Below, in pieces: positions 1 through 14,300 of a stretch of DNA of 14,300 bases. The translations under genes and the position numbers were made by a program. Source of the DNA: a virus (Duplodnaviria > Heunggongvirae > Uroviricota > Caudoviricetes); IMG/VR virus record IMGVR_UViG_2671180490_000011, positions 1 to 14,300 of that record; one strand, 5' to 3'. Numbering within the stretch: the first letter of the stretch is position 1; the number at the start of each line of letters is the position of its first letter. Under the pieces are notes generated by a model, which was not told the DNA's origin, made no database searches, and saw nothing but the letters and a program-made list of their open reading frames with translations.

Positions 1-1020
1 GGGAAAAATATCATCAGATGGCTGCTTAAAAAAAGAACAAATGGTAGTGTCCGCTATTGCCAGTACACCTCATAATGCCTGGCATAGCAAGCCCTTTTCT
101 TGTGTTGTCAAGACATTTGGCAACGTTCAAACATCTGTTTAGAAATGCCAAATTGTTGATCTAACAAATAAACCTGTATAAACAGAACACCATTTAATCT
201 ATTCCCCTGTGTAACCCACCACATCACACAATAAAAACAAAAAACTTTAATTATATTTCATAGCACACAAAAGTCAATAGAAGCCCTTTCGTGCTCCTAC
301 GTAAAAAATCCATCACTTTTCCACTGATACATCAATTCAAGGCGTTATATGTGTTCCTTAGCACATATAACATTTATTATGTTAAATGGATTTTGGCCTA
401 TATTTTGACCTGCACCCGCATAAACACTGGTTTCATCGCTTACAGCCCTTGTGAGACGTGGTGCTGTTTCTAGCATCTGATCCGACATAAAACCGATCAT
501 TCTCGTGTTTAGTGAAAGTTTAGTGAGAGACATTACAGAAAGGCTTTCTGTGTAATGATTTAATAGGTAAAAACGATGTTGATTACGCAAGAAAATTCCT
601 TGCTGATATTTGGGGATTCTGGATTTTCCAGATCGGGGGGCGCTGAAAATCGCGTTAAGCACCTCTCGCAATCTAGCCATAAGGGAAGGGATATAGGTAT
701 TAAGATGTATTTATAGCTATTTATGGCTATTTATTTTTTATTTACCTTTACTTAAAAATAACCTTATAAATCAATAAGATACATAATTATCTGTTTATAT
801 TTTAATCAATTAAATCAAGTTTAATACCCTTAAATCACCTGAAAATAGCCTTAAATACCCCAATAATTAATTTTAAGGTTTTCCGTGTTCTCTTCCGCAT
901 TATGAAAATGCAAAATAAGGCACAAAACAAGCGCACAGACGCATTAAACACACATCACCTATCCCTATACCGAGTAATGAAAACAGCGTTAGAATGCGTC
1001 CTGTTGCGTTCTGGAGATTT

Positions 1021-1179
1021 TCAGAAATCCTCTCTAAGCCATTTCAACTCACTAAGGAGTTTTCTTTCTTCGTTCTCTCTCTGTTTACGCTCTAGCCAGG
1101 CTTTTCCTTCTGGCGTAGACAGGAACTTACGAGCGTGAATCTTGCGGTTATTACGTTTGATTGCTGCAATGTTTTTCAT
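1021..1179 (-). CDS. hypothetical small basic protein (52 aa); below the length cut-off of the supplied ORF track
   Basis: Hand translation of the reverse complement: ATG at 1179..1177, TGA stop at 1023..1021, product MKNIAAIKRNNRKIHARKFLSTPEGKAWLERKQRENEERKLLSELKWLREDF. AGAGG lies 6 nt upstream of the ATG. No family recognised. Overlaps antisense to the weaker + ORF 902..1138, which lacks an RBS. Confidence 0.3.
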   Translation of the reverse strand: MKNIAAIKRNNRKIHARKFLSTPEGKAWLERKQRENEERKLLSELKWLREDF

Positions 1180-1784
1180 CGTGTGCCTCTGTATTCATAT
1201 GAAAATTAACAAGTTACATACTACACAGGGAGACTACGCATAAAACACAATACAAGTAAAGATACATTTTCAAGACAATAGGAGCCATAAAGCGCCTTTG
1301 ATGGTTATACCAAAAAATAAGCGCCGTAGGCGTATCCACTAAAAAGGGCTTTTTCACAAAAGCTATGAAGTCTTAGCAGTTCTTCTCTTATCAGGCACCC
1401 GTTGTACTCCGGTGGACGAAACCGTGCTAGAGCTTGATTCTTTCCCGATCAAGTTAGGTTTTGAAGAGGTGGGCTTTAATCCACTATTGCACTTAAAACT
1501 CTTCCCATCATTTAGCCTGTTTATCCTCTGCAACGTCTCACGACGTGTAGCATCATTGGACACCGCGCCAGGTGTGGAACATCTTGCTAAGAGTTTTGGT
1601 AGAAGGTTTAGAGACGGTGGCACGTCTTCCAGCTTCAAAGGAACTTGTTACGAGGTTGAGCCTGGGAACTACTCGCCCATACGTGTTACACTACCAAAGC
1701 CCATAACAACGTATAGGCGTTTGTAAGTGATAACAGAAGATACAATTTCTTAGAGAAGTTAAGCTAAGTTATTAATTTTCTTAA

Positions 1785-1830
1785 TGGTGCCGATAATAGG
1801 AGTCGAACCTACGACCTTCGCATTACGAAT
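1785..1830 (-). other. partial tRNA-Thr(CGU) gene (thrW-like), 3' 46 nt only; putative prophage attachment-site core (attR-type repeat)
   Basis: Reverse complement reads ATTCGTAATGCGAAGGTCGTAGGTTCGACTCCTATTATCGGCACCA: anticodon loop TTCGTAA (anticodon CGT), variable loop, T-stem/loop GTAGG-TTCGACT-CCTAT, 3' acceptor strand TATCGGC, discriminator A and CCA. The 5' acceptor strand, D-arm and 5' anticodon stem are absent; identity breaks at tRNA position about 31. Match to thrW is from memory of the E. coli sequence. Orientation places the integrated element on the high-coordinate side, consistent with the tail-fibre genes. Confidence 0.55.
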
Positions 1831-2343
1831 TATAAGAATCCGCTTCTAATTCAAAGCATTACCCCATCAACACTGCGCTCACACGTCCCACCACATCAAA
1901 ACATGTAAAGCCTTGCAAGTCATTGCGAGGCCTTATGTGTCTCAGTTTTGTCCCACCTTGTATTACGACTTGCATAGCCAATGAAGATAAATGTGACAAC
2001 AAACGGCGCAGCAGTCTTCTTTTCCTTCATACTTTCCCCACCCAGCATGCATACCTTCTACCATAACTGTAGTGAATGTCTGTTATGAGCGAGGAACGGA
2101 CGTTGCCACGGAACGGACCTAACCATTAACGAGCATCCACCAGCAAGCTATGAGGAAATTATGCAAAGCTAGCATGCCAGGGCCTATACCCAAAAACGGC
2201 CTCGGAATTTTTGATAACAGTTCGAAGTCTAATAATAAAAAAGGGAATCTCTCGGATCTGAAGGTCCCCCTTTAAGCGAGAAAAGGACATTTAATTTTCA
2301 AGTCGTGGAAATCGAAGGCAGTACCTGCCGGAGCCATTGCATC

Positions 2344-2368
2344 GAAGCCTGGATAATATCCAGGCTTC
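2344..2368 (-). terminator. perfect 11-bp stem / 3-nt loop hairpin 34 nt downstream of the oxidoreductase stop; possible terminator or RNA-stability element
   Basis: gaagcctggat-aat-atccaggcttc is a perfect inverted repeat; a second small hairpin ggcag-tac-ctgcc lies at 2318-2330. No U-tract follows on the - strand, so intrinsic-terminator function is uncertain. Confidence 0.3.
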
Positions 2369-2401
2369 ACCAGGCTCATTTATAAAATGCTGTGGTAAGG
2401 A

Positions 2402-3394
2402 TTACTCAACGGTCACGACTATTTTGCCTACCTGGCCATTGGCCTCCATATAGCGCTGGGCGTCTGCAATCTCTTCGAACGGGAACGTTTTATCGATGAC
2501 CGGTTTCAGTTTGCCAGCTCGTAAGCCTTCTGTGATGAAGGATTTTGCGCGCGCCATTTTTTCAGAGTCAGTCGTGATTTCAAACAGCTCATATCCACGC
2601 AGAGTGAGATGCTTACCGAGAATATTAAATACAGGCACAAGCATGTCACGGCTATCGAGCGCGCCATACTGGAAAAACATGCCCTGTGGTGCCATCACCT
2701 GCGTCAGTTTTGCCACGTCCGGCCCGCCGACGGGATCAAAAACAATATGGGCACCTACGCCATCTGTTGTTCGATTGATTTCAGCAACCATATCCAGCTC
2801 TGCAGTAGCAATGACGGCAGCTGCGCCAGCTTTCAGTAGCATTTCACTTTTTTCAGAGGTCCGAGTGAGTGCAATTGGGTTTGCACCCAGCATGTTAGCT
2901 ATCTGTATGGCAGCCAGACCTACGCTGCTTGATGCTGCGCGGATCACAACATTCTGACCAGCCTGAAGATTGCCATATTCAACCAGCGCACCATAAGCGG
3001 TGACATACATCATCCAGCTTGCAGCGGCTTCCTCAAAAGAAAGGTTTTCAGGATGCTTCACGATAGCATGCACAGGTGCATTGACCACTTCACCGTACAT
3101 ACCGTATTCATTAAACATAAATGAAGGGATAACGCTGACCAGATCTCCAATGGTAAACTCATCAACATTCTCACCTACGGCCTGCACAACGCCAGCCGCT
3201 TCATAACCAAGACGTGCCGGAAATTCCGGCTCAATAACATACTGGCCGTTGCGGTACATGATTTCTGCACGGTTGATACCTATCGCATGTACGCGGATCT
3301 GCACTTCACCCGCTGTCGGCGCAGGCACCTGTACATCAACAAATTCCAGCACTTCCGGGCCTCCGGTACGGTTAAAGGTAATAACTTTAGACAT
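2402..3394 (-). CDS. NAD(P)H:quinone oxidoreductase-like protein, medium-chain dehydrogenase/reductase (zinc-type alcohol dehydrogenase) superfamily
   Basis: 330-aa ORF, ATG at 3394 with GAGAG-type SD 6-7 nt upstream, TAA stop at 2404..2402. N-terminal motif GEVQIRVHAIGINRAEIMYRNGQY matches the QOR/zeta-crystallin signature; central glycine-rich nucleotide-binding stretch VVIRAASSSVGLAAIQIANMLGA. Family is firm; substrate is unknown. Confidence 0.85.
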   Translation of the reverse strand: MSKVITFNRTGGPEVLEFVDVQVPAPTAGEVQIRVHAIGINRAEIMYRNGQYVIEPEFPARLGYEAAGVVQAVGENVDEFTIGDLVSVIPSFMFNEYGMYGEVVNAPVHAIVKHPENLSFEEAAASWMMYVTAYGALVEYGNLQAGQNVVIRAASSSVGLAAIQIANMLGANPIALTRTSEKSEMLLKAGAAAVIATAELDMVAEINRTTDGVGAHIVFDPVGGPDVAKLTQVMAPQGMFFQYGALDSRDMLVPVFNILGKHLTLRGYELFEITTDSEKMARAKSFITEGLRAGKLKPVIDKTFPFEEIADAQRYMEANGQVGKIVVTVE

Positions 3395-3543
3395 ATTCAG
3401 CTCTCTTCAGTTAAAGGCACTCCTTCAGAATAATGCCGAAGGGATGCCCGAATCATTTGTGAACAATCTACGTTGTTACAAACACACCAGAAATAGCTGA
3501 GAGGGAACTTCAGTATTAATTATCCATTAACAATCCGCCTGCT

Positions 3544-4446
3544 TCAGCGGATCTGCGTGGCCAGAACATCACTGAACCAGTCGATAAAGACGCGCACTTT
3601 TGGAGAAAGGTAGCGCCTGTCGGGATACATCACTGACACGGGCTTTGACACCGATGGGTATTGCGGCAGAATCTCTTCAAGAGCGCCGGAAGCAATATGG
3701 GGAGCAACGGCATCATAGGTAGCTTGGATAATGCCCAGACCAGCCAGAGCACAGGAAAGCAGAATATCGGAATTATCAACCAGCAGGCTGCCCGCAGGAC
3801 GTAGTGAAACAATGCTCCCGTTTTCGATAAACTTCCATTCCATGACGTCACGACTGTGGTCGCTAAAAAAGTTAATTGCCCGATGTTTATCCAGATCCGC
3901 AAGTGTTTCTGGCCGCTCATGCTGCTGCAGGTAAGACGGGGCTGCACAGGTAACCATCCGGATGTCACCAAGACGTCTGGATATAAAACTAGAATCCTGA
4001 AGCGCACCCAGGCGGATAAGGCAATCTACGCCTTCCGTGATCAAATCAGTTTTTTTATCCGAAGAAACCAGCACAACTTCAATACCTGGATACAGTGTCT
4101 GAAAATGCCTAAGATTAGGGATCAATATGGAATGCGCCAGCGCCAGGGGCACATCAAGTCTCAGGCGTCCTCGCGGTGGAAGAGTCGGTGAAAAACTGGC
4201 CATCATGTCATTAACTTCGGCCAGGACATGCCTGGCATGATGATAGAACTCATCCCCTTCAGCAGTAACGCTCAGCTTTCGGGTTGTGCGATAAATGAGT
4301 TTTACACCCAGATCATGCTCTATCTGCTGTATTGCTTTGCTCACGGTGGGGCGATGGATCTGAAGTACATCAGCAGCTTTAGTGAAGCTACCCTGCTCAA
4401 CAACCTGTATGAAAATATTTAGGTATTCAATCATGTTGGCATGCAC
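3544..4446 (-). CDS. LysR-family transcriptional regulator
   Basis: 300-aa ORF with N-terminal helix-turn-helix (YLNIFIQVVEQGSFTKAADVLQIHRPTVSKAIQQIEHDLGVKL) and a C-terminal co-inducer-binding-type domain of typical LysR length. GTG at 4446 has AGGTGA 5 nt upstream; alternative ATG at 4434 (MIEYLN...). TGA stop at 3546..3544. Lies 149 bp upstream of, and co-oriented with, the oxidoreductase gene. Confidence 0.85.
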   Translation of the reverse strand: MHANMIEYLNIFIQVVEQGSFTKAADVLQIHRPTVSKAIQQIEHDLGVKLIYRTTRKLSVTAEGDEFYHHARHVLAEVNDMMASFSPTLPPRGRLRLDVPLALAHSILIPNLRHFQTLYPGIEVVLVSSDKKTDLITEGVDCLIRLGALQDSSFISRRLGDIRMVTCAAPSYLQQHERPETLADLDKHRAINFFSDHSRDVMEWKFIENGSIVSLRPAGSLLVDNSDILLSCALAGLGIIQATYDAVAPHIASGALEEILPQYPSVSKPVSVMYPDRRYLSPKVRVFIDWFSDVLATQIR

Positions 4447-4819
4447 GTGATCACCTGTTTTGTAGGCTGTTTAAAACTGACATTGTAAAGTAAACCATCC
4501 CAACGACATTATTTTTTTCGTTCAGATAAGGGCTTGTCCGCTTCTGGCACATAGCAGACCAGAGACACTGGCGTAAAGCCATGGAGGATCGGTGGGAGGA
4601 GGTAAAAATCCTCTCATGCAAAAAATACGCAAAATCGATAACAGTTGGAAATCATTCAATACTCGCACTATCGGAAGTTCACCAGCCAGTCGTAGCACGT
4701 TCTTGCATACGACGTGGCTACGGGTTTCGAGACCGGTCCAATCATCAAACGAAACATAAAATTAATTCACATTATGAGGAAAAGTATCTTTTTTGTACTA
4801 TGTAAATTCAAAGGCTTAG

Positions 4820-5689
<870 letters not shown>

Positions 5690-5708
5690 GTCTTTAAGTG
5701 ATAAGCAT

Positions 5709-5757
5709 AAACCGCAGCACGTCATGCATACGTCGTGTCTGCGGTTTTTCTTTTTTG
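5709..5757 (+). terminator. rho-independent terminator between convergent genes (GIY-YIG gene and tfa); may act bidirectionally
   Basis: Stem aaaccgcag (5709-5717) pairs with ctgcggttt (5739-5747), followed by TTTTTCTTTTTT to about 5756 on the + strand. On the - strand the downstream tract is less U-rich. Confidence 0.6.
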
Positions 5758-5758
5758 C

Positions 5759-6343
5759 TTACACGGTGTCTGGTTCTTCTGGCCACTCAATATCAGGTGC
5801 AGTTGATGTATCAACACGGTTCAGCAACACCCGATACTTCTTCCAGGCTTCCAGCAACGAGGTTTCTTCCTCCGTTGCAATTTCCAGATCTGCAGCATCC
5901 TGAAGCGGCGCAATATGCTCACTGGCTACCTGCATCAGGTTGTTTTTTGTTTCTTCCGCCTCCCGGATCCGGAACAGTTTTTCTGCTTCCGTATCCTTCA
6001 CCCAGGCTGTGCCGTTCCACTTCTGAAACTCCCCTTCCGGCGATAACCAGGTAACATTTTCCGGTAACGGACCGAGTTCAGAAATAAATAACGCGTCGCC
6101 GGAAGCCACGTCATAAACCGTTTTACCCCGATGATCTTCAACGAGATGCCACGATGACTCATCACTGTTGAAAACAGCCACGAAGCCAGCCGGAATATCT
6201 GGCGGTGCAATATCGGTACTGTTTGCTGGCAGACCTGTATGAGGCGGAATATATGCATCACCTTCACCAATAAATTCATTAGTTCCGGCCAGCAGATTAT
6301 AAATTTTTATGGTCCGTGGTTGTTCACTCATTCTGAATGCCAT
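5759..6343 (-). CDS. tfa: tail fibre assembly protein (phage lambda Tfa homologue)
   Basis: 194-aa product [48 protein letters not shown]... is near-identical along its length to lambda Tfa as I remember it. The ATG overlaps the stop of the upstream stf (TAATG), the classic stf-tfa coupling. Confidence 0.9.
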
Positions 6344-8505
6344 TATGCAAGCCTCACAATATAGTTAAATGCGATGTTTTTGACGGTGTTTTCCGCGTTA
6401 CCAGCAGCGTTAACGGTGATGGTGTGTCCATGTGAACCAATCGCAACGGAGTGCGTATGAGCACCAATACCGACAGTATGTGCATGTGCGCCTGCGCTTG
6501 CAGCTGTGCCGGACAGCGAGTGGGTATGAGCACCATCTGATGATGTCTTCCCTGCATTACGAGTCTGGCCACTACCGCTTGTTGTGCTCATAATCCCCGC
6601 GCTTAGATTTGAAATCGCGGTATAACCATTAGGGAAAATGCTCGTGTTCGTGCCACCAAATGCACCGGAACTCTTGTGTTGGTGCGCACCGGCACTATTT
6701 GCGGTCCCGCTAATACTATGGGTATGCGCCCCGGTGTTATTCGTGGATTTGGTTCCGTAATCAAACGACGATGTGGTTTTCGTCCCCAAATCCGTACTGG
6801 ATGCGCTGGCGCTGTGGGTGTGCGATTTAATGCCGTCCTGTTCCTGAGATAATACGGCCCGACCACTGGCGGGCTTGCCCTTAATCGTCCAGCCACGCAT
6901 ATCAGGGATCACGCCTGACGGATAAGCGGCTGCAAGTTTCGGGTAAGCAGATTTGTCAAAAGTCTGCCCCTGCATCAGGGCATAACCAGACGGAACGGTA
7001 TCTGATGGCCACGGGATTGGTGCGCCGACTGGGTAGCTTTCTGGTGGAAGATTTTTCGAGGTATAAACTTCTGCCCAGTCTTCCTCAAAACCATAACCGT
7101 CTCTTGAAGAACGGTAGAACAGACCACCATTTCTGTAATGCGCCTTCATCTGCAATGTCCGGCAACTTCCGACTCCGGTATAGAAGTTAACCAGAATATA
7201 GCTGTTGCCAGAGCGGGTGACATTGTAAGCGCCTGATTCGGCATTCCAGGGAACGCCACCATCCGCATCGGCATATGTATCCGTTGCCCTTCTGGCAAAA
7301 GCAGCCACATGCGCGGCGGTTAAAGTAATATCTTTGGAACCATCAAACTCAACACCAGAAACCAGTCTTGGCGTTTGCAGCTTTGTTGCTGTTAATGCAT
7401 TACCGTTCAGACTTGCGGACAGTTTGGTTCCAATAACCAGTTCGCCGGTTGCGTTATCAATAGCAAACGGTCTTAATGTATTCCAGCCACCATAAACATC
7501 ACCTTGATTGGTAAGCAGCAGGTAAGTTTTAGCGCCATCATTACGCCATAATGCCCCATACTCCCCACCTATCATTCGAATCTGATTACCACCACGCGCT
7601 ACAATTTCGTCTGTGGCAAAAAGTTTTTTGCACGACAAGTTATCGTTAACGATTAACGAATGAGACTCATAAAAACCACGCCCACTCTTAAAATCAAGGA
7701 TAACGTCCGCCGCGATACATTCAGTCGCCGGATTTGTTGCCCCAAACTTATAGGTCGTATCATTAACAACGAGATCAGCACCAGGTGCGGATATTGACAG
7801 GCCATCTTCGATAAACGCAAAAACAGGGAAAGCAGCGCCATCAACATAGAACACAGAGCGCAAATCATCGCCCTTATTACTCATCATTATTGAGTGGATG
7901 GCTCGTTCATTGTTTTGATATTGCCAGAACATTCCATAAGCATAACGCCCCCTGTCAGTCCAGCCACCAGGCATAACAAATCCGTTAAACTCGCAGTTAT
8001 TCATCGGATCGCCTGCGGTTCGCGTTGCCGTGGTGATAATGACCCTTGATGCCAGTTCGCTTACTGAGCCAGCAGAACGCATAACAACAACAGGGTAATA
8101 TTTTCCAGATGTTGCACCTGCAGGAGCGTTAACCCGCACATAACGCATACCACGCTTATCAGCAAAGTCTGTTTTACTGACCGCGTTAATGTTGTTCAGG
8201 AAGCGTCCCTTATCGGGTATATCAGCGCCGTTCTGGTCTTTCTGCAGACGTTTCTCTGCATTGTCATAGGCTGATTTTACTGCCTTTGGCGTTGCCGCCT
8301 GTGACTCGGAAGTGCTGTTGGTCGCACTGCTGAGCTGTACTATCCCCTTTTTCGTCGTGCTCGCATCCTCAAGCGCCACGGCGGATGCAATATCCTCTGC
8401 CCGTTTTGCCGCTGTCTCAGCGCGCGTTGCTGCAGATTCCGCCGTACTTTTGCTCTGTGCTGCCGCCGTCGCACTGCCAGCTGCCTCTGTCGCCTTCGTG
8501 GATGC
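6343..8505 (-). CDS. stf: side tail fibre protein, 5'-truncated copy (C-terminal about 720 aa) with its own central domain; 5' end lost at the N/junction at 8506
   Basis: Translation contains the lambda Stf motif [24 protein letters not shown], a central domain (about residues 100-510 of the track ORF) different from that of the 8553-12128 copy, and a shared C-terminal His-rich region ([55 protein letters not shown]). The track ORF 6343..8553 is an artefactual fusion: its first 15 codons are a tfa 5' fragment joined through the N at 8506. Confidence 0.6.
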
Positions 8506-8506
8506 N
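8506..8506. other. single N at a sequence junction (stf internal repeat region joined to a tfa 5' fragment)
   Basis: Literal n in the sequence; sequence identity to the 6296-6343 tfa/stf junction starts immediately after it. Confidence 0.9.
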
Positions 8507-8553
8507 TTATAAATTTTTATGGTCCGTGCTTGTTCACTCATTCTGAATGCCAT
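8507..8553 (-). other. duplicated 5' fragment of tfa (first 15 codons), truncated at the N
   Basis: 8507-8590 is a near-copy of 6296-6380 with 2 substitutions (one changes Tfa Pro9 to Ala). The encoded [15 protein letters not shown] stops at the N at 8506. Confidence 0.6.
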
Positions 8554-11500
8554 TATGCGAGCCTCACAATATAGTTAAATGCGATGTTTTTGACGGTGTT
8601 TTCCGCGTTACCAGCAGCGTTAACGGTGATGGTGTGTCCATGTGAACCAATCGCAACAGAGTGCGTATGAGCACCAATACCGACAGTATGCGCGTGTGCA
8701 CCCGCAGATGCTGCTGTGCCGGACAGTGAGTGTGTATGGTTTCCTTCTGAAGATGATTTACCTACCCATTGGGAGGTGCCACTGGTTAATGAGCCACTGA
8801 TACCAACCTGATTAGTCCCGCTAACTTGAGTACTCCCTGCCGGAAACATTCCAGTAGGTTGACTCCCGCTATTCGTTCTGGGCCCAGTCTGACTATGTTG
8901 GTGGGCCCCAGCTGAACTTGTAGAGCCGCTCAGACTGTGCGTATGCGCCCCGGTGTTATTCGTGGATTTAGTGCCGTAATCAAACGACGATGTGGTTTTC
9001 GTCCCCAAATCCGTACTGGATGCGCTGGCGCTGTGGGTGTGCGATTTAATGCCATCCTGTTCCTGAGACAATACGGCACGACCACTGGCGGGCTTGCCCT
9101 TAATCGTCCAGCCACGCATATCAGGGATCACGCCTGACGGATAAGCGGCTGCAAGTTTCGGGTAAGCAGATTTGTCAAAAGTCTGCCCCTGCATCAGGGC
9201 ATAACCAGACGGAACGGTATCTGATGGCCACGGGATTGGTGCACCGACTGGATAAAACTCTGCAGGAGGATGAGCCGAGGTGTAAAGCTGCGCCCACGGC
9301 GACCAGTTTGCGTCGGTCGTATCCCGTCGTGAACGAATAAATGCCGGAGCATGAGCACCGCTTGTACCACTCCAGCCGATGAGTAACTCACCTTCGCCAA
9401 CGGCTGTCATCCCTTTCAGGTGAATGATATTTCCATACGCTGTTGGATATCCGTTGTTATACACCTCGTATAACTCAAGACCTGCTGCCCCCTGCGTATT
9501 GTCTGTCAGCGCGGCTACCCGACCTTTTGAAGCCAGATTAACTGATGATACTGCTGTTCCACCTGACGGTAGCGCCCCGATCTCTGATGCCGTTGGCTTA
9601 TTTCTGGAGTTATAGTCCCTTCGCCAGCCAGGTGAATAATCTGTTCCGTGATTAATATAGGTAAACTGGGCGTTGGTTGTTCCGCCACCGCTGGATGTGG
9701 TCGGAGTGGTAATGCGGATCGTCATCGCTGACTTTATCCCCATTACTTCAATGACAGCTCCGGCGAGATGAATATTACCGCAGCCAGTATCAGTAATGAT
9801 TTTATTATTGCCATAAGACCAGGAACCCTTGCACATCCAGTATGGATGGTTAAATGCTCCCTGAGAATCCAGCCACTCGATAAACTGTGCAGTCGTCCAG
9901 TTTCCTGTTGTTGTGCTTACTGACCCACCGAAGGCACGGCAGGCACCAATATTTTTCGTAAAGGTGTCTTTGCCAGGGATATCCGCACCGTTCTGATCTT
10001 TCTGCAGACGTTTCTCAGCATTGTCATTGGCTGCTTTTACTGCCTTTGGCGTTGCCGCCAGCGTTTCAGACGTGCTGTTGGTCGCGCTGCTTAGCTGGAT
10101 TATCCCTTTCTGTGCTGTCGTTGCATCCTGTGCGGTGTATTTCCCGTTAGCCAGGTCATACGCGGCCTTAACGGCTTTTGGTGTTGCCGCCAGTGACTCG
10201 GAAGTGCTGTTAGTCGCACTACTGAGCTGTACTATCCCCTTTTTCGTCGTGCTCGCATCCTCAAGCGCCACGGCGGATGCAATATCCTCTGCCCGTTTTG
10301 CCGCTGTCTCGGCGCGCGTTGCCGCGGATTCCGCCGTACTTTTGCTCTGTGCTGCCGCCGTCGCACTGCCAGCTGCCTCTGTCGCCTTCGTGGATGCTGT
10401 CGTGGCGCTGCCCTTCGCTGCGGACGCTTGTCTGGTCGCCTCATCTTTTGAAGCAGACGCCGATGATGCCGATGACGCCGCCGAACTGGCGGACGATGCG
10501 GCAGCCGTTTTTGAGGATTCTGCACGGGTTTCCGACGCTTTCGCGTTCGTTTCGGATGTCTTCGCTGCGGAAGCTGACCTCGCTGCTGCCGTGGCCTGCT
10601 CAGTGGCTTCGCCAGCCTTCGTTGTGGCTGTTGAAGCGGATGATGCGGCGCTTTCTGCCGATTTTCCGGCGGCGGTGGCACTGGCTGAGGCCTGCCCGGC
10701 ACTTGTTGACGCGGCGCTGGCAGACGACGCAGCCGCTGTTTTTGAGCCTGCCGCAGCTGAGGCACTCTGTCCCGCTGCCGTTTCAGAAGACCTGGCGTTC
10801 GTCTCGGACGTTTTGGCCGCCTTCGCAGAATTTGCAGCCGNNNNNNNNNNNGTCGCACTGCCAGCTGCCTCTGTCGCCTTCGTGGATGCTGTCGTGGCGC
10901 TGCCCTTCGCTGCGGACGCTTGTCTGGTCGCCTCATCTTTTGAAGCAGACGCCGATGATGCCGATGACGCCGCCGAACTGGCGGACGATGCGGCAGCCGT
11001 TTTTGAGGATTCTGCGCTGGTTTCCGACGCTTTCGCGTTCGTCTCGGATGTCTTCGCTGCGGAAGCAGACCTCGCTGCTGCGCTGGCCTGTACAGCGGCT
11101 TCGCCAGCCTTCGTTGTGGCTGTTGAAGCGGACGATGCAGCACTTTCTGCCGATTTTCCGGCGGCGGTGGCACTGGCTGAGGCCTGCCCGGCACTTGTTG
11201 ACGCGGCACTGGCAGACGACGCAGCCGCTGTTTTTGAGCCTGCCGCAGCCGAGGCGCTCTGTCCCGCTGCCGTTTCAGAAGACCTGGCGTTCGTCTCGGA
11301 CGTTTTGGCCGCCTTCGCAGAATTTGCAGCCGCCGTCGCCGAGGAAGCTGCGCTACTGGCGCTTGATGATGCGTTCGTTTCTGATGATTTTGCCGCCTCT
11401 TTTGAAGCCGACGCATCCCGGGCTGAGGTGGCAGCTTCTGACGCTTTCGTGGTCGCGGTGGATGCAGAAGTGGCTGCTGATTGTTGTGACGCTGCCGCAT

Positions 11501-12128
11501 TCGTTTCTAACGTTTTCGCCGCACCGGCACTGGTAGCCGCCGCGCTTTTTGAGGACTCTGCAGCGGCAGCACTTTTTGAGGCTTCAGTGGCCTTTGTTGA
11601 TGCCGTTCCTGCGCTGGAAGACGCTGACTGAGCCGACGAAGCGGCCTGTCCGGCTGACGTGCTGGCTGCACGTGCTGAATCTGCAGCATCAGTCGCATGG
11701 GTTGCCGCCTCACGGGCTGATGTGCTGGCATCGCTGGCTGATTTCTTCGCGGCTGCCGTGTTCTGTGCCACCGCGGACGCGTTACGCGCCACCTCTTCCA
11801 CCATCAGCTCAAAACGGCGCAGTGCCTCCGGACGGGCATCATCCTCCGTCATGGCACCGAGAAAATCATTCAGCGTACCGGGTCGGGAATCTTCATACAC
11901 GGTGATGGTCCCGGCATGTGACGGCGGGAATCCTTCCACCAACAGAATAACGCTGTACTGACCGTACTCAACGTCCATGCTGTAACGCCCGGCTTCATCC
12001 GGATTTTCTGAGGCCAGCGTGTTCACCACCACCGTGGTGCTGTTACGTTTTGCTTTCAGCTGGATTGTGCAGTTCTGTACCGGTTTTCCTGTGCCGTCTT
12101 TCAGTACACCTGAAATCTTTACTGCCAT
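8553..12128 (-). CDS. stf: side tail fibre protein (phage lambda Stf homologue), interrupted by an 11-N gap at 10841-10851
   Basis: N-terminus [37 protein letters not shown]... is near-identical to lambda Stf. Followed by a long Ala/Ser/Thr-rich low-complexity region, the [24 protein letters not shown] motif (twice), a central domain, and the His-rich C-terminus ending [11 protein letters not shown]. Likely start is the ATG at 12128 (GGGGTGA SD 5 nt upstream); the track begins at an in-frame GTG at 12134. TAA stop at 8555..8553 overlaps the tfa-fragment ATG. Confidence 0.75.
10360..11332. repeat. two ~481-bp direct repeat units inside the stf Ala/Ser-rich region (10360-10840 and 10852-11332), separated exactly by the 11-N gap
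   Basis: Both units begin gtcgcactgccagctgcctctgtcgccttcgtggatgct and end tttgcagccg. Protein segments [18 protein letters not shown]...[10 protein letters not shown] are repeated with a few substitutions (AAVQASAA vs ATEQATAA; SETSAES vs SETRAES). Confidence 0.7.
10841..10851. other. assembly gap (11 N) within stf
   Basis: Literal run of n. Confidence 0.95.
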
Positions 12129-12139
12129 ATTCACCCCAC

Positions 12140-12165
12140 AAAAAAGCCCGCCTGAACCGGCGGGC
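12140..12165 (-). terminator. intrinsic terminator immediately upstream of the stf start (terminates the upstream tail gene); identical copies at 13197-13222 and 14267-14292
   Basis: On the - strand: GCCCGCC-GGTTCA-GGCGGGC followed by TTTTTT, then the GGGGTGA SD and the stf ATG. Confidence 0.5.
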
Positions 12166-12198
12166 TGTCATAACACTGTGTTACCTGGCTAATCAGAA

Positions 12199-12199
12199 N
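12199..12199. other. single N at a junction between stf upstream region and an internal stf position
   Basis: Literal n; flanks are ...ttacctggctaatcagaa | n | ctttctgccgattttccgg..., the latter being the internal stf sequence also found at 11143. Confidence 0.9.
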
Positions 12200-13185
12200 C
12201 TTTCTGCCGATTTTCCGGCGGCGGTGGCACTGGCTGAGGCCTGCCCGGCACTTGTTGACGCGGCACTGGCAGACGACGCAGCCGCTGTTTTTGAGCCTGC
12301 CGCAGCCGAGGCGCTCTGTCCCGCTGCCGTTTCAGAAGACCTGGCGTTCGTCTCTGACGTTTTTGCCGCCTTCGCGGAATTTCCTGCCGCTGTTGCCGAG
12401 GAAGCTGCGCTACTGGCGCTCGAGGATGCGTTCGTTTCTGATGATTTCGCTGCCTCTTTTGAGGCCGCCGCATCCCGGGCTGAGGTGGCAGCTTCTGACG
12501 CCTTCGTGGTCGCGGCGGATGCAGAAGTGGCTGCTGATTGTTGTGACGCTGCCGCATTCGTTTCTGACGTTTTCGCCGCAGCGGCACTGGTAGCTGCCGC
12601 GCTTTTTGAGGACTCTGCAGCAGCAGCACTTTTCGATGCTTCACTGGCCTTTGTTGATGCCGTTCCTGCGCTGGAAGATGCTGACTGAGCCGACGACGCG
12701 GCCTGTCCGGCTGACGTGCTGGCTGCGCGTGCTGAGCCTGCAGCATCAGTCGCATGGGTTGCCGCCTCACGTGCTGATGTGCCGGCATCGCTGGCTGACT
12801 TCTTCGCGGCTGCCGTGTTCTGTGCCACCGCGGACGCGTTACGCGCCACCTCTTCCACCATCAGTTCAAAACGGCGCAGTGCCTCAGGACGGGCATCATC
12901 CTCCGTCATGGCACCGAGAAAATCATTCAGCGTACCGGGTCGGGAATCTTCATACACGGTGATGGTCCCGGCATGTGACGGCGGGAATCCTTCCACCAAC
13001 AGAATAACGCTGTACTGACCGTACTCAACGTCCATGCTGTAACGCCCGGCTTCATCCGGATTTTCTGAGGCCAGCGTGTTCACCACCACCGTGGTGCTGT
13101 TACGTTTTGCTTTCAGCTGGATTGTGCAGTTCTGTACCGGTTTTCCTGTGCCGTCTTTCAGTACACCTGAAATCTTTACTGCCAT
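12200..13185 (-). CDS. stf: stf 5' fragment, copy B (N-terminal about 330 aa of side tail fibre protein, truncated at N 12199); distinct allele
   Basis: Same N-terminus as the 8553-12128 stf but with about 8 amino-acid substitutions (DASTSA to DAGTSA, DAADSA to DAAGSA, TKATEA to [15 protein letters not shown] to SAAAAKTSE and others). ATG at 13185, with SD and terminator upstream. Confidence 0.45.
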
Positions 13186-13255
13186 ATTCACCCCACAAAA
13201 AAGCCCGCCTGAACCGGCGGGCTGTCATAACACTGTGTTACCTGGCTAATCAGAA

Positions 13256-13266
13256 NNNNNNNNNNN
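13256..13266. other. assembly gap (11 N)
   Basis: Literal run of n. Confidence 0.95.
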
Positions 13267-14255
13267 GCGCTTTCTGCCGATTTTCCGGCGGCGGTGGCAC
13301 TGGCTGAGGCCTGCCCGGCACTTGTTGACGCGGCGCTGGCAGACGACGCAGCCGCTGTTTTTGAGCCTGCCGCAGCTGAGGCACTCTGTCCCGCTGCCGT
13401 TTCAGAAGACCTGGCGTTCGTCTCGGACGTTTTGGCCGCCTTCGCAGAATTTGCAGCCGCCGTCGCCGAGGAAGCTGCGCTACTGGCGCTTGATGATGCG
13501 TTCGTTTCTGATGATTTTGCCGCCTCTTTTGAAGCCGACGCATCCCGGGCTGAGGTGGCAGCTTCTGACGCTTTCGTGGTCGCGGTGGATGCAGAAGTGG
13601 CTGCTGATTGTTGTGACGCTGCCGCATTCGTTTCTAACGTTTTCGCCGCACCGGCACTGGTAGCCGCCGCGCTTTTTGAGGACTCTGCAGCGGCAGCACT
13701 TTTTGAGGCTTCAGTGGCCTTTGTTGATGCCGTTCCTGCGCTGGAAGACGCTGACTGAGCCGACGAAGCGGCCTGTCCGGCTGACGTGCTGGCTGCACGT
13801 GCTGAATCTGCAGCATCAGTCGCATGGGTTGCCGCCTCACGGGCTGATGTGCTGGCATCGCTGGCTGATTTCTTCGCGGCTGCCGTGTTCTGTGCCACCG
13901 CGGACGCGTTACGCGCCACCTCTTCCACCATCAGTTCAAAACGGCGCAGTGCCTCAGGACGGGCATCATCCTCCGTCATGGCACCGAGAAAATCATTCAG
14001 CGTACCGGGTCGGGAATCTTCATACACGGTGATGGTCCCGGCATGTGACGGCGGGAATCCTTCCACCAACAGAATAACGCTGTACTGACCGTACTCAACG
14101 TCCATGCTGTAACGCCCGGCTTCATCCGGATTTTCTGAGGCCAGCGTGTTCACCACCACCGTGGTGCTGTTACGTTTTGCTTTCAGCTGGATTGTGCAGT
14201 TCTGTACCGGTTTTCCTGTGCCGTCTTTCAGTACACCTGAAATCTTTACTGCCAT
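13267..14255 (-). CDS. stf: stf 5' fragment, copy C (N-terminal about 330 aa), truncated at N gap; protein-identical to the 5' end of the 8553-12128 stf
   Basis: Translation matches copy A over the region shown. ATG at 14255, upstream terminator at 14267-14292; the window ends shortly after. Confidence 0.45.
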
Positions 14256-14300
14256 ATTCACCCCACAAAAAAGCCCGCCTGAACCGGCGGGCTGTCATAA

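Follow-up and report, generated by a model that had tools for sequence, protein, structure and literature searches.

The closest described relatives of the genes considered here are stf and tfa of Ur-lambda, which lie in the order J-lom-stf-tfa and whose Stf, in lambda, is 774 residues long. Recombination of lambda stf/tfa with Rac and Qin has been described (PMC3945230), as has a functional lambda-P2 STF chimera (bioRxiv 10.1101/2022.09.30.509847). The stretch of DNA analysed here, which we refer to as the window, comprises 14,300 nucleotides (positions 1 to 14,300 of the IMG/VR record IMGVR_UViG_2671180490_000011). It resembles the Ur-lambda system in the make-up of its fibre genes (phage_tail_N, an Ala/Ser-rich shaft, Phage_fiber_2, Collar and a His-rich C-terminus) and in having a lambda-type Tfa whose gene overlaps the stf stop codon. 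Of the Ur-lambda gene order, only the lom-stf spacer, stf and tfa fall within the window, J and lom lying outside; the full J-lom-stf-tfa arrangement is seen in collinear closed genomes and phages. It differs from Ur-lambda in that its stf alleles are longer (1133 and 1027 aa) and carry another mid-fibre module and another tip insert.

An initial annotation had recognized two minus-strand stf frames in the window and interpreted them as two fibres encoded by one phage. The frames and their common parts are confirmed, these being the N-terminal part, a repeat that begins GI(V/I) and continues for 11 residues, an 11-residue linker, and a T4-gp37-like His-rich C-terminus. The interpretation as two fibres in one phage is not supported: there is an N at every break, exact overlaps connect blocks that are not adjacent, merging these blocks gives normal single stf genes, and the tandem is present in no closed genome or listed phage. 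We consider it very probable (about 0.9) that the window is a scaffold in which at least five contigs of near-identical lambdoid-prophage stf regions stand end to end, each join being marked by 1 or 11 N, and that the true genes are Y (blocks C3 and C5) and X (blocks C1 and C4), each encoding one lambda-type side tail fibre. This would be close to the outcome named beforehand as a refutation, in which different loci are joined at the N at 8506.

There are four N sites in the window (8506, 10841-10851, 12199 and 13256-13266), and they match the four structural breaks one to one. Read along the minus strand, the blocks follow one another in the order C1, C2, C3, C4, C5, and the features are as follows.

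13267-14300, minus strand: block C1, with the lom-stf spacer, a terminator-like hairpin and the first ~331 stf codons (ORF start 14261); goes with C4 as allele X
13256-13266, no strand: scaffold gap C1/C2, 11 N; the sequence restarts in the lom-stf spacer beyond the gap
12200-13255, minus strand: block C2, with the lom-stf spacer and the stf 5' part (ORF 12193-13191); third haplotype
12199, no strand: scaffold join C2/C3, a single N
10852-12198, minus strand: block C3, with the lom-stf spacer and stf codons 1 to ~425 (ATG 12128), encoding the phage_tail_N domain and Ala/Ser-rich shaft; goes with C5 as allele Y
10841-10851, no strand: scaffold gap C3/C4, 11 N; source of the apparently artefactual 1193-aa ORF
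8553-10840, minus strand: block C4, the stf 3' part of allele X, with Pfam and PDB matches
8507-8553, minus strand: tfa start of allele X, first 47 nt, cut by the contig end at the N at 8506
8506, no strand: scaffold join C4/C5, a single N; origin of the apparent tandem
6343-8505, minus strand: start of block C5, the stf 3' part of allele Y, with Pfam, PDB and phage matches
5759-6343, minus strand: tfa of allele Y, 194 aa; PF02413 (Caudo_TAP), E 1e-44

Positions 1-2090 of the window, and only these, are 99% identical to another IMG/VR contig (L006), which represents another locus.

The ends of the blocks agree exactly with blocks that are not their neighbours. C1 ends in the 193 nt (13459-13267) with which C4 begins (10840-10648), and C3 ends in the 38 nt (10889-10852) with which C5 begins (8505-8468). 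Merging these non-adjacent blocks at their overlaps yields two intact ORFs, one of 1133 aa for Y and one of 1027 aa for X. The two overlaps, 193 and 38 nt, are unequal in length and therefore give no pointer to an assembler with one fixed k-mer. As the window stands, its minus strand presents instead an ORF at 8553-12134 with an ATG at 12128, and an ORF at 6343-8553 that is stf-like from 8505 onward and constitutes a tfa::stf fusion. The 1193-aa 'gene' at 8553-12128 is not one real gene, because it spans the 11-N gap at 10841-10851 and holds a 481-nt block twice (10360-10840 and 10852-11332, 96.9% identical). A true internal duplication within this ORF was considered and rejected, since the two 481-nt copies stand on either side of the 11-N gap and fall into different merged alleles. 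To judge from this layout, the gaps account for both the 1193-aa ORF and the 'truncated tfa' as artefacts, and we infer as much from the structure of the sequence together with the comparisons described below. A point against an artefact is that the 1193-aa ORF and the tfa::stf fusion both remain in frame across the N sites, the chance of which is about 1 in 9.

Two further stf 5' fragments are present in the window, at 12200-13191 and 13267-14261. Block C2 is ~96-97% identical to C1 and C3, with 33 and 32 mismatches respectively over 986 nt. Its first nucleotide corresponds to that of C3, its end falls 3 nt short of the homologous end of C1, and its continuation is absent from the window. We take C2 as the 5' end of a further, third copy or haplotype. 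Because the SNPs of C1, C2 and C3 form a mosaic patchwork and some blocks may be chimeric paths, there is less certainty about the pairing of C4 with C1 rather than with C3 than about the presence of two 3' alleles.

Were the tandem real, one prophage would have, behind a full stf, a 5'-truncated stf cassette that lacks a promoter and is accompanied by its own tfa. This could mean two fibres, or else a silent cassette able to take the place of the expressed 3' half through homologous recombination at the shared ends. The copies do lie in direct orientation and stay in frame where they cross the N sites, and their shared flanks of 230-330 nt, with 94-97% identity, would permit such recombination. 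Nonetheless, each novel junction holds an N, the blocks exactly overlap non-adjacent blocks, the merged genes match closed-genome genes in both length and order, and the scaffold contains two extra orphan stf 5' fragments that no cassette model needs. Neither the layout nor the junction is found in any of 5426 closed E. coli genomes or in any listed phage: at least 80% coverage of the window is reached by 0 of the 5426, the junction at 8506 is present as one aligned piece in none of them, and five records that cover both junction halves were rejected as examples because they do so in two pieces 470-673 nt apart. The best closed genome maps 12.5 kb of the window onto 7.7 kb holding one stf, and the phages listed have one matching place per record, in a J-lom-stf-tfa layout with a single stf each. 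A genuine tandem is thus highly improbable, although it would, if true, represent a cassette-type switch of host range acting on the mid-fibre and tip modules, unlike the known invertase-driven ones.

If the joins are artefacts, the alleles could derive either from different prophages of one genome or from a mixed or metagenomic sample that contained different strains. Scaffolding of mixed samples typically gives allelic contigs strung together by N, and the three 5' haplotypes with their patchwork of SNPs would fit such an origin. However, both types are carried by one closed genome, W150, in which a Y-type and an X-type stf occupy separate J-lom-stf-tfa prophages 2.9 Mb apart, and one genome suffices to explain the data because closed E. 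coli genomes have a median of 4, and up to 18, places matching the stf query. We regard an origin from different strains as unlikely.

With the window read as a scaffold of prophage contigs, each merged allele can be compared with intact loci. Allele Y (C3 and C5) encodes a 1133-aa Stf and is followed by tfa, GIY-YIG, LysR and Zn-ADH genes, the last two names being taken from the collinear GDSC2BY4G annotation. Its N-terminus matches PF08400 (window 10853-12128, minus strand; positions 1-134 of 134, E 3e-72), and the same N-terminus is found in C1 and C2; its 3' part has one Phage_fiber_2 unit and Pfam matches to Gp34_trimer, Phage_fiber_2 and Collar. The tfa start codon overlaps the stf stop, its product matches lambda-type Tfa, and the gene is 100% identical to that of the GDSC2BY4G locus; the ORF 3' of tfa encodes a LEM-3-like GIY-YIG protein (PF22945). 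The initial annotation had placed a complete tfa after the 6343 copy only, and this is borne out (5759-6343, Caudo_TAP E 1e-44), with the 8553 copy being followed by 47 nt of tfa up to the N at 8506. Together, Y and its tfa align to the closed E. coli genome NZ_CP182142.1 as one gapless collinear piece (4115/4115 nt, 98.0%), where the annotated stfR is 3402 nt long and has the same tfa and GIY-YIG context. At least 80% of Y plus tfa is covered in 1228 genomes, and the Y 3' part is present in phages ev099 and mEp332 with 100% coverage and 98.2% identity.

Allele X (C1 and C4) encodes a 1027-aa Stf, followed by a tfa whose first 47 nt alone lie in the window, and its 3' part in C4 contains an Ala-rich shaft and two Phage_fiber_2 units. 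Matches in closed genomes reach 99% coverage at about 97% identity, with at least 80% covered in 636 genomes. The X 3' part is 98.6% identical to the stf at the Qin site of SCU-152, and the 47-mer in the window is the exact start of the complete 576-nt tfaQ in that genome. X-type phages (PhiR68_2, PhiR26_1 and mEp460_ev081) match the X 3' part with 92% coverage and 97-98% identity, and the X tip itself is rare, being found in 25 of 5426 closed genomes.

The 3' parts of the two alleles are composed of corresponding segments, all on the minus strand.

8215-8247, minus strand, block C5: Y 11-residue linker
7039-8214, minus strand, block C5: Y central module, 392 aa
6715-7038, minus strand, block C5: Y collar
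6529-6714, minus strand, block C5: Y tip
6343-6528, minus strand, block C5: Y conserved end
9975-10007, minus strand, block C4: X 11-residue linker
9252-9974, minus strand, block C4: X central module, 241 aa
8934-9251, minus strand, block C4: X collar
8739-8933, minus strand, block C4: X tip
8553-8738, minus strand, block C4: X conserved end

Both copies carry GI(V/I) with the 22 residues that follow it and a shared block starting from a common 12-residue sequence, and in the 8553 copy a second GI(V/I) unit, with its 11 further residues, constitutes a 44-aa insertion. At the conserved linkers the identity between the alleles drops from 94-97% at the nucleotide level to no similarity. The central domains had been described as different and of ~400 and 260 aa; they are indeed unrelated, but measure 392 aa and 241 aa, and BLASTP between them aligns only the last 28 aa (43% identity, E 0.009). 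The C-termini had likewise been called near-identical, and while their ends are shared and each allele has seven HxH motifs at homologous positions, a tip segment of 62 and 65 aa (6529-6714 vs 8739-8933) is merely 39% identical.

The proposal that these segments reflect modular exchange is well founded, given the loss of identity at the conserved linkers and the other combinations of central and tip segments that occur elsewhere. GDSC2BY4G joins the X central segment to the Y tip, and other tips accompany the Y central segment in PhiR34_1 and the X central segment in PhiR68_2 and PhiR29_1; tabulated by module, the central and tip modules reassort independently across other genomes and phages. 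Two units that can be exchanged independently distinguish X from Y, namely the mid-fibre module and a tip insert of 62-65 aa. Both are bounded by conserved linkers (23 conserved linker residues and the HxH-rich flanks) that could provide the place of crossover for homologous recombination between co-resident or infecting lambdoid phages. We infer that recombination at the linkers produced the mosaics. Swapping of modules between stf alleles is real but is well-known mosaicism, and the alleles, the modules and the principle are already public in genomes, phages and the literature.

Each gene is predicted to encode a fibre that starts with a phage_tail_N tail-attachment domain and continues through a long Ala/Ser-rich shaft and one or two Phage_fiber_2 units to the exchangeable mid-fibre module, which would be followed distally by a collar, needle and head of the T4 gp37 type, with Tfa presumably assisting in folding. 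The needle would contain the seven HxH motifs, a kind of motif that forms the metal sites of the needle in the gp37 tip family. Sequence matches to solved structures annotate most of both central modules, the Y module being T4-gp34-like and Mu-gp52-like and the X module Mu-gp52-like, and the Y C-part also matches 8JU3 and T4 gp34 (4UXE) in the PDB; a single-sequence structure prediction for the Y central module gave an unusable model (mean pLDDT 36.7, pTM 0.23). The C-termini match T4 gp37 (PDB 2XGF) over chain positions 27-242 (E 4.8e-84 for Y and 4.6e-82 for X), and Collar (PF07484) is matched with E 3e-12 and 5e-12.

The unrelated central domains had been viewed as receptor-recognition (host-range) cassettes, a reading in which the His-rich C-terminus would be a common structural end. 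It is in the central modules that the alleles differ most, the X module is strongly similar to Mu gp52 (8JU3, E 1e-69), and the last ~95 aa of the Y module match Mu gp52 as well. Fibres of Mu and of the P2 type bind LPS, which also speaks for this view. The association of the P2 fibre with LPS is documented (bioRxiv 10.1101/2022.09.30.509847), and a Salmonella Stf binds an LPS core sugar (PMC12312913). We nonetheless find it rather doubtful that the central domains are the host-range cassettes, as a complete gp37-like tip lies distal to the central module in both alleles (2XGF, E 5e-84 and 5e-82), the modules sit mid-fibre, the Y module partly matches T4 gp34, a proximal shaft protein, and the tip reassorts without the central module. 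Moreover, the tip insert, with its 39% identity between alleles, aligns to about gp37 residues 919-965, inside the 907-996 specificity region described for gp37 within the T4/lambda RBP family (Magaziner and Salmond 2022, PMC9659904), and the most divergent homologous stretch of the alleles is the part aligned to this region. These alignments suggest that receptor use is determined mainly by the tip insert, and that the mid-fibre module is probably structural or serves as an accessory binder.

The window offers a caution, in that N-linked scaffolds running through multi-copy prophage genes can generate convincing in-frame 'tandem' or oversized tail-fibre genes; annotation pipelines would call the 1193-aa chimera and the tfa::stf fusion ORF as real. 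It also provides one more documented case of lambdoid Stf proteins assembled from an independently reassorting mid-fibre module and tip insert at conserved linkers, and these linkers would be useful for picking fusion points in host-range engineering.

Among known systems, the invertible cassettes (the Mu G segment, the P1 C segment and the Pin systems of e14, Rac and Qin) are similar in having a constant 5' part and alternative fibre 3' parts, and Pin-type recombinase genes lie 3' of tfa at some X-type loci; unlike them, the window copies are direct and not inverted. No inverted repeats of at least 18 nt are present in 4400-12200, where all self-matches are direct, nor is there an invertase ORF in this interval, or an invertase or recombinase among the Pfam-scanned ORFs (stf parts, tfa and GIY-YIG). 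Invertible or shufflon-type switching was rejected because both inverted repeats and an invertase are lacking. The T4 gp37 tip (2XGF) aligns end to end with the C-terminal ~230 aa, including the collar, the seven HxH motifs and the final 11 residues, but where the head and distal needle of gp37 align, both window alleles have a longer and divergent insert, and the chaperone here is a lambda-type Tfa, whereas T4 uses gp38 and gp57A. Mu gp52 (S', 8JU3) is matched by the X central module at residues 178-362 (E 1e-69) and by Y C-part residues 400-494 at gp52 322-415, and the NGADIP linker also occurs in Mu S and S'. T4 gp34 (4UXE, 5NXF) has its match in residues 293-364 of the Y C-part (Pfam Gp34_trimer, E 2e-27). 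In contrast to Mu gp52 and T4 gp34, the modules here are mid-fibre, upstream of a gp37-like tip, and the Mu alignment reaches ~415 of 488. Sequenced lambdoid phages are close relatives as well, with mEp332 and ev099 being of the Y type and PhiR68_2, PhiR26_1 and mEp460_ev081 sharing the X-type central module, while the X-type phages PhiR68_2 and PhiR29_1 differ from the window X in carrying a different tip insert.

The window is interrupted by exactly four runs of N, single positions at 8506 and 12199 and 11-nt runs at 10841-10851 and 13256-13266, and these delimit five blocks, C1 to C5, numbered along the minus strand. This strand carries all of the relevant genes in the ORF list.

14300-13267, minus strand, block C1
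13255-12200, minus strand, block C2
12198-10852, minus strand, block C3
10840-8507, minus strand, block C4
8505-1, minus strand, block C5
13188-14261 and 12193-13191, minus strand, further ORFs with the same 14-residue opening
8553-12134, minus strand, 1193-aa ORF, ATG at 12128
6343-8553, minus strand, 736-aa ORF
5759-6343, minus strand, 194-aa ORF
14262-14300, 13192-13255 and 12135-12198, lom-stf spacer with terminator-like hairpin, one per block

The lom-stf spacer and the 5′ part of stf, the lambda-type side tail fibre gene, occur three times, as blocks C1, C2 and C3; the starting nucleotide is the same in C2 and C3, and the ends of C1 and C2 are no more than 3 nt apart. C1 ends in the same 193 nt with which C4 begins, and C3 ends in the same 38 nt with which C5 begins; it is therefore non-adjacent blocks that naturally continue each other. 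When the blocks are merged at these overlaps, two intact genes result, Y (C3 plus C5, 1133 aa) and X (C1 plus C4, 1027 aa). The 1193-aa ORF is composed of C3, 11 N and C4, with one 481-nt block present twice (96.9% identity), one per allele, while the 736-aa ORF opens with the first 15 residues of a tail fibre assembly protein, followed by an ambiguous residue and then by mid-stf sequence. What the initial annotation described as a 5′-truncated stf and an incomplete tfa (the tail fibre assembly chaperone gene) are apparently contig ends, and the tandem layout of the two stf genes is, judged from the sequence, an artefact of scaffolding or assembly.

The lom-stf spacer precedes both stf 5′ fragments, at 13267-14261 and 12200-13191 (minus strand), and both fragments break off at an N. 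Just upstream of the stf start this spacer holds the terminator-like hairpin GCCCGCC-GGTTCA-GGCGGGC, followed by TTTTTT.

None of 5426 closed genomes covers the window at 80% or more, and the 8506 junction was not found as one aligned piece in closed E. coli genomes. In the best closed genome, GDSC2BY4G, 12.5 kb of the window maps onto 7.7 kb with a single stf. Y with its tfa aligns to E. coli CUPF09 as one gapless piece (4115/4115 nt, 98.0%) and is at least 80% covered in 1228 of the 5426; the CUPF09 counterpart of Y is annotated stfR (3402 nt) in the context J-lom-stf-tfa-GIY-YIG, and its downstream context matches that of the window. Merged X reaches 99% coverage at about 97% and is at least 80% covered in 636 closed genomes. 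Its 3′ part is found at the Qin site of SCU-152 (98.6% identity), where the exact 47-nt tfa start of C4 opens a full-length tfaQ and a Pin-type recombinase comes next. Sequenced lambdoid phages have the same alleles with one stf per genome, Y in ev099 and mEp332 (100% coverage, 98.2%) and X in PhiR68_2, PhiR26_1 and mEp460_ev081 (92% coverage, 97-98%). The closed genome W150 has one stf of the Y type near prfC and, at a distance of 2.9 Mb, one of the X type; both sit in separate J-lom-stf-tfa modules.

The proposal of two fibres in one prophage finds no support in view of the four N sites, the overlaps of non-adjacent blocks and the lack of any such layout in closed genomes. That two loci are falsely joined at N 8506, a possibility raised at the outset, is what the sequence evidence points to, because blocks overlap non-adjacently and closed genomes and phages show single stf modules. 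A genuine direct tandem, or a silent cassette, is highly improbable. An invertible cassette is excluded, since the repeats are direct, with no inverted repeats of at least 18 nt found in 4400-12200 and no invertase ORF found.

The alleles may derive from a mixed sample of several strains or from several prophages of one genome; the mosaic SNPs of C1, C2 and C3 are compatible with either, and closed genomes show that one genome suffices. The SNPs are patchy (C1 equals C2 at 300 and 321, C1 equals C3 at 387-831, and C2 equals C3 at 873-921), a pattern suggestive of gene conversion among three or more copies, or else of chimeric assembly paths.

The single stf of GDSC2BY4G (10563-13637 of its locus) is annotated as a pseudogene with an internal stop, and the annotation of mEp332 splits the stf region (2263-5663 of its locus) into two 'hypothetical' CDSs. 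Interruption of stf, also seen in lambda PaPa, seems to be common.

Downstream of tfa the window carries the following genes.

4865-5689, plus strand, LEM-3-like GIY-YIG domain gene (PF22945, E 2e-14)
3544-4446, LysR regulator
2402-3394, Zn-dependent alcohol dehydrogenase

The GIY-YIG gene follows immediately downstream of tfa but is encoded on the other strand, a position kept in GDSC2BY4G and CUPF09. The cargo of the post-tfa region, in the window the LysR regulator and the alcohol dehydrogenase, is highly variable between related loci, with examples including a Dcm methyltransferase together with a type II restriction enzyme, Avs2, a DEAD/DEAH helicase, a Pin recombinase, and a reverse transcriptase accompanied by a SLATT protein; the region looks like a defence/cargo hot-spot at the prophage right end. 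Positions 1-1780 are AT-rich (33-44% G+C), have no long ORF, and are missing from the GDSC2BY4G locus, which elsewhere is 99.8% identical; positions 1-2090 are 99% identical to IMG/VR contig IMGVR_UViG_2671180353_000009.

Global alignment of the X and Y proteins shows that the first 344 residues are identical and that near-identity extends to about residue 493, with a 44-aa insertion in one copy that is a second unit of GI(V/I) plus 11 residues. After a common 11-residue linker they diverge completely, over 392 aa in Y (nt 7039-8214) and 241 aa in X (nt 9252-9974), before near-identity returns at a 12-residue motif. BLASTP pairs the central segments with each other only over their final 28 aa (43% identity, E 0.009), and the observation of two variants with common ends and different centres therefore holds, albeit in refined form: most of the His-rich C-terminus is indeed near-identical, but it contains a previously overlooked segment of 62/65 aa, the tip, at 39% identity (nt 6529-6714 versus 8739-8933).

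Segment-by-segment comparison shows that central and tip units reassort independently in other genomes and phages. In GDSC2BY4G the tip and tfa of Y (both 100% identical) accompany the X central module, mEp332 has the Y module and Y tip, PhiR34_1 the Y module with another tip, and PhiR68_2 and PhiR29_1 the X module with another tip. Among the 5426 closed genomes the Y module occurs in 1360 and the X module in 800; the X tip (8739-8933) is rare (25 closed E. coli genomes, 24 at ≥99% identity). The modular exchange initially proposed is thus supported, although already known: the common flanks (94-97% nucleotide identity) and the lower G+C of the modules (0.47-0.50 versus 0.60 in the shaft) fit the mosaic manner in which tail fibre genes have long been known to evolve.

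Pfam identifies phage_tail_N at the N-terminus (E 3e-72), Phage_fiber_2 units, a Collar domain and Phage_fiber repeats in the 3′ parts of both alleles, a T4 Gp34_trimer domain in the Y central segment only, and a Caudo_TAP chaperone at 5759-6343; PHROG matches are to tail fibre families throughout. For the Y central module, AlphaFold prediction from a single sequence gave no usable model (pLDDT 36.7).

Compared with solved structures, both alleles match 2XGF, the receptor-binding tip of T4 gp37, along the whole of their C-terminal ~230 aa (E 5e-84 and 5e-82), and each has seven HxH motifs. The divergent insert aligns to chain positions of about 135-181, or about gp37 residues 919-965 if, as chain and protein lengths suggest, the 242-residue chain is 785-1026. 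These residues fall inside gp37 907-996, the region that PMC9659904 links to T4 receptor specificity, and by homology the distal tip, rather than the central segment, is therefore the best candidate for primary receptor determinant. The central modules sit in mid-fibre and may be structural; that they add a second contact, e.g. with LPS, we consider possible but rather doubtful.

The X central segment matches residues 178-362 of Mu fibre gp52 (8JU3, identified as gp52 in PMC11821841) with E 1e-69, gp52 residues 322-415 are matched by the final ~95 aa of the Y segment, and residues 293-364 of the Y C-part match T4 gp34; in these alignments the NGADIP linker motif is common to Mu S and S′ and the X and Y fibres. 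The modularity of X and Y fits both the recombination documented between lambda stf/tfa and the prophages Rac and Qin (PMC3945230) and the functional chimeric lambda-P2 fibre (bioRxiv 10.1101/2022.09.30.509847).
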